Assembly (NCBI RefSeq): GCF_030384885.1
Contig: NZ_CP128613.1
Source: Escherichia coli
Lineage (GTDB): Bacteria > Pseudomonadota > Gammaproteobacteria > Enterobacterales > Enterobacteriaceae
Length of the DNA stretch: 64,000 nt
Strand: one strand, 5' to 3'
The notes beneath the pieces are model-generated. The model had not been told where the DNA came from. It did no database searches and worked only from the letters and a program-made list of their open reading frames with translations. This document shows, piece after piece, positions 1 to 63,114 of the stretch (the stretch's first letter is position 1; every line of letters starts with the position of its first letter). A program made the translations under genes and the position numbers.

Positions 1-1010
1 TCTGCTCCTAATCCTTGCCATGCCTGAAAACGTTTAACGGCTTCTACCAATTCATTATTGTAGGCGGCACGAACGGCAGGCGCAGGTTTACTACGAGACG
101 TCGTTTGCTGGTCCATCGCCTTAGTTTCTGCTGTTTCAGCAGTAACAGCGGATGGGCTGACCACCGCGTCAGTTGGCGTGTCATCGCCAGGCAGAGTTAT
201 TTTCGGCCCCCCGTCCAGCATGCCTGTACGTTGCAATATTTCGCGCAATGCCGGTATGTCGTTACTCCACTGCCCTGGACGCAATGTTGCTTTGCCAGTC
301 AGTTGGGGCCACGGTTTGGTGTCACTGAGTAAGGCCAGTAACGATTCATGCATCGCCGCATATTGCGGATGCTGCGGTGCCAGTCCTGCAACAAACGTCG
401 GCAATTGACCTTTATCCAGCGCCAGCTGCCATTGGTTAATCACCGAAAGCGGCGGCGTTGCAAGCGCATAAGGTTTACTGCTATATAGCCAGCGAGTGCC
501 TTTGACCGGAATATTTGCAATGAAATGGAGATAGCCCATCATCGCATCAGAGAGCACGACGTCGCGTGCCATCCCGTTAACACCAGGATCGGTCAGTAAC
601 TCTACCCATTTATTAAACTGCGGCTGGAAACCGGCAATCGCCACCTCTGCCAGCTGTTGCTGGAAGGCTTTAACAGCATCACGGTTTTCCCACATGGGTT
701 GCATATCGCGTGCGGCATACAACAATTGAAGCTGGTTAAGATAAACCGGCTTATAACCTGCGGGTAATTGAGATTCGATTTGCGTGCGGGCTCTTTCAGC
801 CGCACCTTCAGGCAATGGCTGGATCCCCGCCATTATTGCCGTGGCTTGCGCCTGCGGCAGTGCCTCGCCCTGTTCACTGACAGCCACCGGGCTGTCGCCA
901 GGGATTACTTCAGGCTCATCGGCCTGCGCATTGAACAGTGGAGCGAATGTTACGGCCAGGCACAAACTGATTGCCGACAGCCGACGACCACACATCATAT
1001 TAAGCAACAT
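1..1010 (-). CDS. ldtD: L,D-transpeptidase LdtD (YcbB), N-terminal part only; 3' end lies beyond the window
   Basis: Reverse-complement translation from ATG at 1010 reads [20 protein letters not shown]... (signal-peptide-like) and stays open to the window edge; sits downstream of mukB as in E. coli. Absent from the ORF track because it has no in-window stop. Confidence 0.85.
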
Positions 1011-27515: not shown

Positions 27516-27529
27516 ATGATCTATATCAA
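27516..27529 (+). promoter_or_regulatory. FNR-type binding site in the focA-pflB promoter region
   Basis: aTGATctatATCAA matches the FNR consensus TTGAT-N4-ATCAA at 9 of 10 positions; a TAGTAT -10-like hexamer at 27552..27557 puts the site near -41.5 of a start about 26 nt upstream of the focA GTG. Confidence 0.6.
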
Positions 27530-35036: not shown

Positions 35037-36185
35037 TTACACGTGAGCAACGGGTTTCGGCGTATGACCGGCGTTGCGAAGCAGCATCAGCAAATAGATA
35101 AACGATACGCTGGCGATCATGATAAACAATAAATTATCGGAGAAATTCTGCATTAGCATGGCAGTAAATGACGGGCCAAGCAGACTTCCCACAGTATAGC
35201 TCAACAGTAAGGCCTGGTTCATCGCCACCAGTTGATGATGTTCAACTTTCTCGCAAGCCCATGCCATCGCCACCGGATATAGCGTAAAGCCAGCGGCACC
35301 GAGGATGAATAACGCTGGGGCCATCGCCGCCTGGCTAAGCATCGCGATACTGCCGAGAATGACGACAAAGACCTGAACACGCAACACCAGCAGTCGACCA
35401 AACTTATCGGCCAGACGTCCAATCGGCCATTGTCCAAGGATACCCGCACTGACCAGTACCGCCATCCAGAAACCAATGCTGGCATTGCTCACCCCTTTGT
35501 GATTGAGGTACAGCGGCATCAGGCCATATAGAGATCCCCGAACGATTCCTGAGATAATGCAGCCATTCACGCCAAGCCGCGCCTGACGGAGTTTTAGCAT
35601 TGACGTAATTGACGTCGAATCATGGTTTTCAGCCTGCTGATTCAGCACACGCGTAAACAACAGCGGTAAGATCCCTGCCAACGTCAAACCTGTAACCCAC
35701 GGCAATACGGACATCAGCTCGGTTGAAACTTTGCTGACCAGTAACTGGCCTAAAAACGTTCCCACGTAATAAACCATCATATACGCAGCAAGCAAACGAC
35801 CACGGTTACGTGACGTCCCACTGCACATCAGCGCGCTCTCAACGACCACCCAAATCATGGCACAGCCGACACCCGCTACAAAACGCCACGCCAACCAGCT
35901 CCAGAAACCAATCATCAGGCCAAGACCTGCACAGCCAGCGGCAAAAATGAAGGAGGCCAGATAATAGCTGCGGTTAAAGCCAATGCGCTTAATGACATAC
36001 CCTGTCAGCAATGTACCGACCAGGTTGCCGGTAAAATAGGATGAGCTGACAACGCCTACCTGCCATGTGGACATATGTTCCTGGGCGAGCCAAAGCGGCA
36101 CGAGTGTATTTAACACTGCGATCGCCAAAGTCAACAAAAGCAGGCCAGACAGCAAAAGCATGACAGGCCGGGTATACGTGGACAT
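35037..36185 (-). CDS. ycaD: MFS transporter YcaD
   Basis: 382-aa ORF with about 12 predicted TM segments. Confidence 0.88.
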
Positions 36186-38653: not shown

Positions 38654-41098
38654 TTACACCTTTTCAACCTGAACCAGGTTTGTATGTGACGGATTCCCCT
38701 TAGCGAGAGGAGACGGACGTTGAGTGGTCAGTACGTTAATACAACCGCCCTTATCGACACGTTTTGCATCCGGGTCATACCAGGCACCTTCACCCAGTGC
38801 GACCACACCCGGCATCATTCGTGGCGTCACTTTTGCCTCAATGTGAACCTCACCACGGTCGTTAAAGATCCTGACCTTATCGCCGTTGTTGATACCGCGT
38901 TTTTGTGCATCAAGCGGGTTGATCCACATTTCCTGACGGCAAGCTGCTTTCAGCACATCAACGTTGCCGTAAGTTGAGTGAACGCGAGATTTGTAGTGGA
39001 AGCCAGTAAGCTGCAGCGGATATTGTTTGTTCAGCGGATCCTGATAACTTTCAAAGCCCGGCGTGTAGATCGGCAGTGGATCGATCACGTCGCCTTCTGG
39101 CAATTCCCAGGTCGCGGCAATGTCAGCCAGCGCCTGCGAATAAATCTCAATTTTACCCGATGGCGTGGTCAGCGGATTTGCCTGCGGATCTTCACGGAAA
39201 GCTTTATAAGCAACGTGATGCCCTTGTGGGTCGCGCTTTTTAAAGATCCCCTGCTTGCGGAACTCTTCAAACGTTGGCAGTTCAGGAATCGCTTCCCGCG
39301 ACTGGGCATACAGATGCCGCATCCACTCTTCCTGTGTACGGCCTTCAGTAAACTGTTGCTCAACGCCAAGACGTTTTGCCAGTTCGCTGGTCATTTCATA
39401 GATGGTCTTACATTCAAAGCGCGGTTTAATCACCTGATCGTTGAAAATCACGTAAGACATATTCCCGCAGGATGCATCCAGTGCAAAGTCCATCTGTTCG
39501 GAAGCAGTGCAGTCAGGCAGCAGGATGTCAGCATATTTCGCCGATGAAGTCATGTGGCAGTCGATAACCACAATCAGCTCGCACTTCTTATCATCCTGAA
39601 GGATTTCATGGGTACGGTTGATTTCAGAATGCTGGTTAATCAGGCAGTTACCGGCATAGTTCCAGATCATTTTGATCGGCACATCCAGCTTATCTTTCCC
39701 GCGCACACCATCACGCAGCGCTGTCATTTCCGGGCCACGTTCAATGGCATCGGTCCACATAAACATCGAAATGCTGGTCTGGATCGGGTTTTCGAGGGTC
39801 GGCATACGGACAAAAGGTAAGCTGTATGAACCTTCACGCGCGCCGCTGTTGCCCCCGTTAATACCAACGTTACCGGTCAGAATCGCCAGCATCGAGATAG
39901 CACGGGTTGCGATTTCACCGTTAGCGTGACGCTGCGGGCCCCATCCCTGGCTGATAAACGCCGGTTTGGTACTACCGATTTCACGAGCCAATTTGATGAT
40001 TTTGTCTGCCGGAACACCGGTGATTTGCGAGGCCCATTCCGGCGTTTTAGCCACGCCATCTGGCCCTTCACCCAGAATATAAGCTTTATAGTGGCCATTT
40101 TTCGGTGCACTGGCTGGTAGGGTTTTCTCGTCGTAGCCAACGCAATATTTATCGAGGAATGCCTGATCCACCAGGTTTTCGGTGATCATGACATACGCCA
40201 GACCGTTAACCAGTGCGGCATCTGTTCCCGGACGAATAGGGATCCACTCATCTTCGCGCCCGGCACCGGTGTCAGTATAGCGCGGATCGATGATGATCAT
40301 GCGAGCATTAGATTTCTGGCGCGCCTGTTCAAGATAGTAAGTCACCCCACCGCCACTCATTCGCGTTTCGCCAGGGTTATTACCAAACAGCACTACCAGT
40401 TTACTGTTTTCGATATCCGACGGGCTGTTACCATCTGCCCAGCCGCCGTAGGTATAGTTCAAACCTTCCGCAATTTGCGCGGAAGAGTAGTCACCGTAAT
40501 GGTTCAGGTAACCGCCGCAGCAGTTCATCAGGCGAGCGACCAGGGTATTTCCCGGCGGCCAGGAGCGGGTCATGGTGCCGCCCAGCGTACCGGTACCATA
40601 GTTCAGATAGATAGACTCGTTGCCGTACTCTTTGATCAGGCGCTGCATATTGGTCGCGATGATGTCGTAGGCTTCTTCCCAGCTAATGCGCTCGAATTTG
40701 CCTTCACCGCGCGCCCCGACTCGTTTCATCGGATATTTCAGGCGGTCCGGATTGTAGACACGGCGACGCATGGAACGCCCACGCAGACAGGCGCGCACCT
40801 GGTGCAGGCCGTCATAGTTGTCATCGCCGGTATTATCCGTTTCAACATATTTAATTTCACCGTCCACAACGTGCATACGTAGCGGGCAGCGGCTACCACA
40901 GTTAACTGTACAGGCGCTCCAGATTACCTTTTCGTCTGACTTTGCCGGAAGGGCACTATCAACAGCGTGCGCAATCCGACTAAAAGGTAATGTTAATGCG
41001 CTGCTGGCCATTGCCAGGCCGCCGATCGCTGTCGTTTTTACCAAACCACGGCGACTCACCTCAGCAGCCAATACCGCATCAGGGATTTTCGTTTTCAT
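38654..41098 (-). CDS. dmsA: DMSO reductase catalytic subunit DmsA (molybdopterin)
   Basis: 814-aa ORF with N-terminal twin-arginine signal (SRRGLVKT...AHA). Confidence 0.96.
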   Translation of the reverse strand: MKTKIPDAVLAAEVSRRGLVKTTAIGGLAMASSALTLPFSRIAHAVDSALPAKSDEKVIWSACTVNCGSRCPLRMHVVDGEIKYVETDNTGDDNYDGLHQVRACLRGRSMRRRVYNPDRLKYPMKRVGARGEGKFERISWEEAYDIIATNMQRLIKEYGNESIYLNYGTGTLGGTMTRSWPPGNTLVARLMNCCGGYLNHYGDYSSAQIAEGLNYTYGGWADGNSPSDIENSKLVVLFGNNPGETRMSGGGVTYYLEQARQKSNARMIIIDPRYTDTGAGREDEWIPIRPGTDAALVNGLAYVMITENLVDQAFLDKYCVGYDEKTLPASAPKNGHYKAYILGEGPDGVAKTPEWASQITGVPADKIIKLAREIGSTKPAFISQGWGPQRHANGEIATRAISMLAILTGNVGINGGNSGAREGSYSLPFVRMPTLENPIQTSISMFMWTDAIERGPEMTALRDGVRGKDKLDVPIKMIWNYAGNCLINQHSEINRTHEILQDDKKCELIVVIDCHMTSSAKYADILLPDCTASEQMDFALDASCGNMSYVIFNDQVIKPRFECKTIYEMTSELAKRLGVEQQFTEGRTQEEWMRHLYAQSREAIPELPTFEEFRKQGIFKKRDPQGHHVAYKAFREDPQANPLTTPSGKIEIYSQALADIAATWELPEGDVIDPLPIYTPGFESYQDPLNKQYPLQLTGFHYKSRVHSTYGNVDVLKAACRQEMWINPLDAQKRGINNGDKVRIFNDRGEVHIEAKVTPRMMPGVVALGEGAWYDPDAKRVDKGGCINVLTTQRPSPLAKGNPSHTNLVQVEKV

Positions 41099-41268
41099 AA
41101 TGGCTCACTCAAGCTTGCTCACGATTGATTCCAGTAACAAACCGTATTGTGTAATTATTTCTATAGCAGTTCGCTATATAGGCTTGTATATATCGAATGA
41201 TTTGAAAATCAAAGAGATAGGTAGATTTTCACTCGAAAGTAGTATTACGTGTTAGTGAGGAGTAATTA

Positions 41269-41282
41269 TTGTTCGGTATCAA
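41269..41282 (-). promoter_or_regulatory. FNR-type site in the dmsA promoter
   Basis: Minus strand reads TTGATaccgAACAA, the TTGAT-N4-ATCAA pattern with one mismatch in the right half, about 175 nt upstream of the dmsA ATG; dmsABC is an FNR-activated anaerobic operon. Confidence 0.6.
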
Positions 41283-41290
41283 AGGGAGAC

Positions 41291-41316
41291 AAAAAAAGCG
41301 CCCGCAGGCGCTTTTT
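41291..41316 (-). terminator. Intrinsic terminator downstream of serS
   Basis: gcgcc-cgca-ggcgc hairpin flanked by A7 and T5 (effectively bidirectional), 21 nt after the serS stop. Confidence 0.8.
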
Positions 41317-41336
41317 AGATTCAGAAAAATTGGGTA

Positions 41337-42650
<1,314 letters not shown>

Positions 42651-62002: not shown

Positions 62003-63114
62003 TGTGCAGCTCCTGGTTTGGCCTCACCAATCACCACTTCATCGCCCGCTTCCAGCCCTTTGACAATCTCAACATCGGTATCGTTACGTGCGCCAATCGT
62101 CACTTCACGCTCGCGTGTTTCACCATTACGCAACAATTTGACTTTATAACGATTATCGCCAACCGGATCGCCTAACGCCGACAGAGGGATCGTCAGCACA
62201 TTTTTCACATCGGTGAGCTGAATATGCACTTGCGCGGTCATATCCAGCCGCAGCAAACCATTGGGGTTGGGTACTTCAAAACGGGCGTAATAGAAAATAG
62301 CGTCGTTAACCTTTTCCGGCGTCGGTAGCACATCCTTGATTTGCCCCTCATAGCGCGTCAGCGGATCGCCAAGCACCGTAAACCAGGCTTTTTGCCCCGG
62401 CTTCAGGTGGATTACATCCGCTTCAGAAACCTGCGCTTTTACCAGCATGGTGCTCATATCTGCCAGCGTCAGAATGTTCGGTGCTTGTTGTGCGGCAATC
62501 ACCGTCTGGCCTTGCAGAGTGGTGATTTGCGTGACTTCCCCGGCCATCGGGGCAACGATGCGGGTGTAATCGAGATTGGTTTTAGCCGTATCGAGTGAGG
62601 CCTGATTGCGCTTGATTTGCGCGTCAATGGTGCCAATTTGCGCCTGTTTCACAGCCATCTCCGTCGCGGCAGTATCGAGATCCTGCTGTGAAACCGCCTG
62701 CGTTTGTGCAAGACGTTGCTGACGGGAATACGTCACCCGCGCCAGTTTCAGCTCCGCTTCCGCCTGCTGCCGCTGCGCGCGTAGCTCCATCAGCGTTGCT
62801 TCCACCTCCTTGATCTGGTTTTCAGCTTGTTCAGGATCAATAACCCCTAAAAGCTGGTCTTTTTTTACTTTATCGCCAATCGCCACCGACAGCGTTTTCA
62901 ACTGACCGCTGACCTGTGCACCCACGTCAACCTTACGCAGCGCGTCCAGCTTTCCGGTCGCCAGCACGCTTTGCTGTAAATCACCGGGGCGCACAATCAG
63001 CGTCTGATAAGTCGGCACGGGTGCGTTAAGAATTCTCCATAACGCAATCAGTCCGGCAATGATTATCACCAGCGCAATAACGTAACGCTTCTTCACGGTT
63101 TTCCGCTTTTTCAT
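61999..63114 (-). CDS. macA: Macrolide export periplasmic adaptor MacA (membrane fusion protein)
   Basis: Track ORF 380 aa; start taken at ATG 63114 ([22 protein letters not shown], 371 aa). Confidence 0.92.

Follow-up and report, generated by a model that had tools for sequence, protein, structure and literature searches.

The spacer between serS and dmsA in the analysed Escherichia coli DNA (one stretch of 64 kb, hereafter called the window) almost certainly carries the published class II FNR promoter dmsA P1, the core facts of which are already known. In E. coli K-12 this promoter is reportedly activated by FNR as a class II promoter, repressed by NarL and dependent on ModE. The arrangement of an FNR promoter followed by a long leader is real, conserved and already described, and an earlier note, which had been made from the sequence alone, represents an accurate rediscovery of a standard model promoter for the control of anaerobic respiration by oxygen, nitrate and molybdate. 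Enterobacteriaceae share a conserved control module that consists of the terminator, the FNR box, the -10 element, the ModE operator and the ribosome-binding region. A single point may exceed published work, namely the register in which the ModE operator is kept with the promoter, together with the tandem duplication of this operator.

The FNR-dependent promoter downstream of serS

The region 40900..41500 of the window is the serS-dmsA junction of E. coli, which was matched in 5425 of the 5426 complete genomes of E. coli; the RefSeq annotation beneath these matches names serS and dmsA. Both genes lie on the minus strand. According to its open reading frame and the RefSeq annotation, serS occupies 41337..42629 and ends with the stop codon TAA (41339..41337), and dmsA occupies 38654..41098 and encodes 814 amino acids beginning with MKTKIPDAVLAAEVSRRGL, the A of the ATG being located at 41098. 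The spacer between them (41099..41336) comprises 238 bp and has the same length in K-12 MG1655 (NC_000913.3), in which 940,720 is the last position of serS and 940,959 the first of dmsA. Three single-base differences (41191, 41199 and 41253) distinguish the spacer from that of K-12, and the FNR box, the -10 element, the terminator and the Shine-Dalgarno sequence are all identical to those of K-12 dmsA P1, which is the same locus. Coordinates of NC_000913.3 are offset by 777 from those of U00096.2, in which dmsA starts at 940,182 (Kim 2012 supplement).

For the comparison across species, one genome per species was scanned with the first 300 residues of DmsA, which resulted in 80 loci from Escherichia, Salmonella, Citrobacter, Klebsiella, Raoultella, Enterobacter, Kluyvera, Leclercia and other genera. 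In 79 of these loci (window included), serS is located directly upstream of dmsA with a spacer of 178-243 bp, and the C-terminal peptide of serS (11 residues) is kept across the compared loci. Among the 79 aligned spacers, an identity of about 0.8 or more is reached by the terminator, the two FNR half-sites, the ATACT of the -10 element, the ModE palindrome, the block GTGAGCAA and the Shine-Dalgarno sequence, and the order terminator, FNR box, -10 AATACT, ModE operator and Shine-Dalgarno sequence is kept across these Enterobacteriaceae. These elements, their conservation and their spacing are direct observations; the binding of FNR in vivo, the distance of -41.5, the NarL protection, the ModE dependence and the AdiZ pairing, which are taken up below, come from the literature, in part by way of secondary citations.

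The intrinsic terminator of serS (41316..41291, minus strand) directly follows the serS stop codon and consists of the hairpin AAAAAGCGCC-TGCG-GGCGCTTTTTTT, in which the stem GCGCC/GGCGC encloses the loop TGCG and is flanked by a run of five A on one side and a run of seven T on the other. The hairpin thus shows the features of an intrinsic terminator, i.e. a GC-rich stem followed by a U-run right after a stop codon. Its fold has an energy of -16.3 kcal/mol (z = -4.19), and the sequence hardly varies among 79 species (identity about 0.9 or higher). Judged from its symmetry, the terminator could act in both directions. A simple consensus terminator scan of 40950..41450 called no terminator despite this strong and conserved hairpin, probably because pairing between the A-run and the T-run uses up the T tail. 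Only 8 nt (41290..41283) separate the T-run from the FNR box, close to the distance of about 10 nt that the earlier note had given, and since the spacing between terminator and box is conserved, its description of a compact, possibly insulated control region is a fair one.

The FNR box TTGATaccgAACAA (41282..41269, minus strand) is centred at 41275.5, i.e. at -41.5 of dmsA P1. The wild-type dmsA FNR site is reportedly of the very same sequence. Written as TTGATACCGAACAA, the box has one mismatch relative to the consensus TTGAT-N4-ATCAA, and it is the sole match with up to two mismatches across the 238-bp spacer, so that no rival FNR box was found nearer to dmsA. The distance between the centre of the box and the dmsA ATG amounts to 177.5 nt, in line with the approximately 175 nt assigned to it before, and the coordinates on which this assignment was based (box 41269..41282, ATG 41098, terminator 41291..41316) are all correct on the minus-strand reading. 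The bare consensus match is not what carries the weight for this site: with up to one mismatch, the 64-kb window contains four matches compared to 2.48 expected from shuffles, which is not beyond chance, and the expectation for the serS-dmsA spacer alone is about 0.01. The weight is carried by position and conservation. Nearly all of the 79 species have an FNR-like box of the form TTGAY-N4-RNCAA at a distance of 45-64 nt, mostly 51-54 nt, past the serS stop codon.

The other matches to the FNR consensus with one mismatch are located at 27516..27529, 35232..35245 and 62827..62840 of the window. Provided that it is collinear with K-12 in this part, the match at 27516 lies near the FNR ChIP-seq peak of focA-pflB (about 953,74x; Myers 2013).

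Published binding data agree with the location of the box. [quoted passage not shown] The same study reports a sigma70 ChIP-seq peak at 940,050, the only one listed in the serS-dmsA spacer, whose occupancy increases from 30.8 under aerobic to 447.5 under anaerobic conditions, and an aerobic/anaerobic expression ratio of 0.018 for dmsA. It is conceivable in principle that the FNR-like sequence is a chance match and that the real promoter lies elsewhere, a reading that could draw on the window-wide number of matches, which does not exceed that of the shuffles. However, the position of the box is conserved across genera, FNR and sigma70 ChIP-seq peaks are found right there and the distance of -41.5 is published, which leaves this reading with virtually no credence.

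By adding 41.5 nt to the centre of the box, we infer the P1 start to be the G at 41234 (minus strand, ±1 nt), corresponding to 940,823 in NC_000913.3 and 940,046 in U00096.2. The sigma70 peak, 132 nt upstream of the dmsA ATG, is only 4 nt away from this predicted start. Relative to the start implied by the -41.5 rule, the -10 hexamer AATACT (41246..41241, minus strand) occupies -12..-7, and its ATACT has an identity of 0.9 or more in 79 species. The -35 region ATAATT (41269..41264) bears no TTGACA-like match, as expected of an activator-dependent class II promoter. The predicted 5' leader extends from 41234 to 41099 (minus strand) and comprises 136 nt. These data place the promoter about 132-136 nt upstream of the dmsA ATG rather than adjoining it, and the proposal of the earlier note, namely a class II FNR promoter that gives rise to a leader of about 135 nt, is borne out by the published distance of -41.5 and by the sigma70 peak. 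Neither the spacer sequence nor the published ChIP-seq data gave any sign of a major start next to the dmsA ATG. The start-site data of Kim 2012, from cultures taken as aerobic, contain no start in the serS-dmsA spacer and only signals of 2-3 reads inside serS; because the dmsA promoter is active anaerobically, this data set is uninformative on P1.

The sole match of a promoter scan, TTGTCT-16-AATAAT (41292..41265, minus strand), overlaps with the terminator's end as well as with the right half-site of the FNR box. This alternative was rejected as the main promoter, as the number of such matches is at the level of chance (1 against 0.8 expected) and the -35 element is not conserved.

With a box at -41.5, no usable -35 element and sigma70 dependence, dmsA P1 resembles the class II FNR promoters of narG, nirB, nrfA and ydfZ (Myers 2013, Table 1). 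As a probable difference from these promoters, dmsA adds a ModE site well inside the transcribed region. Heptamers of the NarL type (TACYYMT) are found in a zone from -35 to +22 of the predicted start (41269..41213, minus strand), including two perfect ones at 41264..41258 (-30..-24) and 41223..41217 (+12..+18); in a pattern scan, further heptamers matching at six of seven positions were found at -35..-29, -10..-4 and +16..+22. The number of heptamers in the promoter zone is not above that of shuffles (p about 0.1). NarL protects a large region spanning the FNR and RNA polymerase sites at dmsA, as quoted in a curation paper.

Position of the ModE operator relative to the promoter

A ModE-type operator, CGATATATA-caagcc-TATATAGCG (41195..41172), forms a palindrome at +40..+63 of the predicted start, with its centre at +51.5. 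It shows no mismatch to the pattern CGNTATATA-N6-TATATANCG and is the sole match in the 64 kb (0.08 expected), so that the inverted repeat CGnTATATA-N6-TATATAnCG typical of ModE sites is present at 41172..41195. The pattern was modelled on ModE operators and, as a check that supports its use, finds the K-12 modA operator with two mismatches. Due to an A at 41191, where K-12 has a G, the palindrome is perfect in the window and carries one mismatch in K-12. The modA operator and those of moaA and napF represent palindromes of the same type. The K-12 modA operator is located just upstream of the ATG, whereas the dmsA operator lies about 51 bp downstream of the predicted start, which is an unusual place for an activator site. 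At modA, the ModE operator overlaps the promoter and ModE represses, whereas at dmsA ModE is reportedly needed for activation. ModE is also referred to as an activator of dmsABC in secondary citations of McNicholas 1998.

A comparable ModE site (up to five mismatches) is found in 78 of the 79 species, and 76 loci have a site with no more than two mismatches. The FNR centre and the operator are 92 bp apart in the window, and among the 76 loci with a good site, 68 show a distance of 89-94 bp. In most species the palindrome is centred within a narrow range, +48.5..+52.5 relative to the predicted start. In five loci the distance to the best site is 123 bp; there, as in the C. freundii group, the good site is a second copy exactly 31 bp further downstream, the first one being decayed. 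The distance from the ModE site to the ATG, on the other hand, is variable and ranges from 45.5 to 86.5 bp across species. The stretch between the start and the operator (about +12 to +38) is poorly conserved in sequence, yet free of indels in the alignment of the 79 spacers, and the region past the operator is gapped in 60-90% of the species in the whole-spacer alignment. From this comparison we conclude that the ModE operator is positioned relative to the promoter and not to the start codon.

Two tandem ModE palindromes, centred at +51.5 and +82.5 and thus exactly 31 bp or about three helical turns apart, are present in 15 loci, all of them from Citrobacter. In one Citrobacter werkmanii locus the tandem pair is shifted by an upstream deletion, and in Salmonella enterica subsp. 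arizonae the pair is accompanied by a weak third match, which lies upstream of the promoter. The alignment also reveals a decayed second palindrome in the window (about 41168..41142), the counterpart of which, at +82.5, has remained intact in many loci of Citrobacter and Salmonella. The predicted leaders comprise 77-144 nt overall; those of Escherichia, Salmonella and most Citrobacter loci measure 127-144 nt and those of most other genera 94-113 nt. As judged from the aligned spacers, a long dmsA leader is a family-wide property. We further conclude that the extra 30-35 nt of the Escherichia-type leader are likely to stem from a duplicated ModE operator.

A leader-only alignment had equated the single ModE site of Klebsiella and Enterobacter with the second Citrobacter copy. 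This assignment was overruled by the coordinates and the whole-spacer alignment, according to which the site corresponds to the first copy at about +51.

The sole locus without a ModE-like palindrome is L053, which originates from an uncultured Enterobacter MAG. Its short spacer (178 bp) and its short predicted leader (77 nt) are consistent with a deletion of the ModE operator.

The fixed register raises the question of what sets the length of the leader. We tentatively suggest that it may be set by DNA geometry and not by RNA function, ModE acting from a fixed helix face downstream of the start, a reading that we hold to be possible rather than probable. If it is true, ModE might bend the DNA, displace a nucleoid protein or silence cryptic TATATA promoters in the leader, the leader of Escherichia, Citrobacter and Salmonella would have grown via tandem duplication of the operator, and the fixed register would represent a testable clue to how an activator acts from about +51. 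An unusual activator site at +51.5 calls for an explanation, and it could also be explained by a second, weaker promoter inside the leader, for which the TATATA-rich ModE palindrome would serve as the -10 element, so that a fraction of the mRNA would have a shorter leader and ModE would act at that promoter. The palindrome indeed contains TATATA hexamers on both strands, and a second dmsA promoter, P2, has reportedly been described. However, the promoter scan returned no match inside the leader on either strand, the one sigma70 ChIP-seq peak listed in the spacer is located at P1, although at a resolution that would allow for a weaker second promoter, and the spacing of the ModE site is conserved relative to P1 but not relative to the ATG. 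We therefore consider such a second promoter to be unlikely.

The leader RNA and the start of dmsA

A long leader in front of an operon that encodes a molybdoenzyme might also represent an RNA-level switch, e.g. a moaA-like molybdenum-cofactor riboswitch or an attenuator, the length of which would be set by RNA structure. The leader is predicted to be long in every genus compared (77-144 nt), and a perfect 8-bp stem is possible at the 5' end of the E. coli dmsA leader. However, the minimum free energy of the leader is ordinary (z = -0.87; 46 of 200 shuffles fold as well), RNAalifold identified no conserved pair in 30 diverse leaders, and a permissive Rfam scan (E ≤ 1) detected no cis-regulatory family on the dmsA strand, Moco motif included, so that neither a conserved structure nor a known family marks the dmsA leader as a cis-regulatory RNA. 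In addition, the central part of the leader shows poor conservation and many indels, and the conserved block within it is a DNA palindrome in register with the promoter and not with the ATG. Consequently, we regard an RNA switch as extremely improbable. The suggestion of the earlier note that the leader could hold further regulatory sites or structure thus holds for the sites and fails for the structure: the scan of the region between the box and the ATG yielded a ModE palindrome with no mismatch and two perfect NarL heptamers, to which a putative small RNA-pairing block can be added, and the predicted fold is no better than that of shuffles.

This block, GTGAGCAA (41122..41115, minus strand), is located at -24..-17 of the ATG and has an identity of 0.8-0.9 in 79 species. 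[quoted passage not shown] By analogy, the block, which covers -22, is likely to be a small RNA-pairing site, for AdiZ in Salmonella. For E. coli, RNAduplex with the K-12 adiA 3' UTR and the leader resulted in a long spurious duplex of -32.5 kcal/mol, weaker than the shuffled mean of -37.4, and by eye only about five bases of the adiA 3' UTR are complementary to the block. Downstream of it, the Shine-Dalgarno sequence GAGTGAG (41110..41104, minus strand) occupies -12..-6 of the ATG with an identity of about 0.8-0.9.

The same block was considered as a second FNR box close to the gene and rejected, the E. coli version TCAATCGTGAGCAA having three mismatches by eye and lacking the key G of TTGAT. 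In several genera the block reads as an FNR-like box with two mismatches, e.g. TTAATTGTGAGCAA or TTGTGAGCAATCAA, centred 18-25 nt before the ATG; the corresponding position in the E. coli window is 41115..41128.

Taken together, the following sequence of events can be proposed for the spacer. Transcription of serS would halt at the strong and conserved hairpin terminator, behind which the FNR site starts 8 bp later. Without oxygen, an FNR dimer bound at -41.5 would replace the missing -35 element and recruit sigma70 RNA polymerase to AATACT, and this class II activation would lead to transcription from about 41234. In the presence of nitrate, phosphorylated NarL on the heptamers from about -35 to +22 would block FNR and the polymerase. 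The DNA at +40..+63 would serve as the operator for ModE, the molybdate-sensing regulator required for full expression, and the last 25 nt of the leader would hold the ribosome-binding site and the conserved block at the position at which AdiZ pairs in Salmonella. The long leader would then mostly provide room for DNA-level regulator sites in register with the promoter and would not form a structured RNA switch. The part of this proposal according to which the ModE spacing sets the length of the leader is, like the exact start base, inferred from distances.

The antisense strand and an element next to serS

On the plus strand, the Rfam family RF02084 (STnc130) matches 41189..41323 with 139.5 bits (E = 5e-25), antisense to the dmsA promoter and leader. 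The match is full-length and far above the gathering score of 55, which makes the sequence a member of the family by its covariance model. An RNA of this kind would begin in the ModE palindrome, traverse the promoter of dmsA and terminate at the serS hairpin, behind which the plus strand reads TTTTT. One could therefore argue that the conservation of the spacer reflects an antisense small RNA, STnc130, that ends at a two-way serS terminator, and the score as well as the TTTTT after the hairpin would fit such an RNA. We nevertheless consider it very unlikely. In the work of Sittka 2008, STnc130 is placed in the serS/dmsA spacer as "class V", read here as a computational prediction, and is listed with a probe, with 0 reads among the cDNAs and, for the Northern blot, with "nd", taken to mean not detected; a later paper still refers to it as a "putative sRNA". 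No promoter-like match was found on the plus strand. Furthermore, the only real helix of the RF02084 model is the terminator, and its conserved stretches are the FNR box, the -10 element and the start region in reverse. While the window sequence fits the model from end to end, the family itself rests on an unconfirmed prediction, and the make-up of the model suggests that it probably mirrors a conserved dmsA promoter and not a small RNA.

A separate observation concerns Escherichia albertii NBRC 107761 (L004), in which serS is not found within 900 bp upstream of dmsA. The terminator, the FNR box, the -10 element, the ModE site and the Shine-Dalgarno sequence are all intact in this locus, and about 160 bp before the terminator hairpin lies the end of an open reading frame of 289 amino acids (33..902 of the locus), which by eye resembles a tyrosine integrase of the phage type. 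This suggests that an element may have integrated between serS and the serS terminator.
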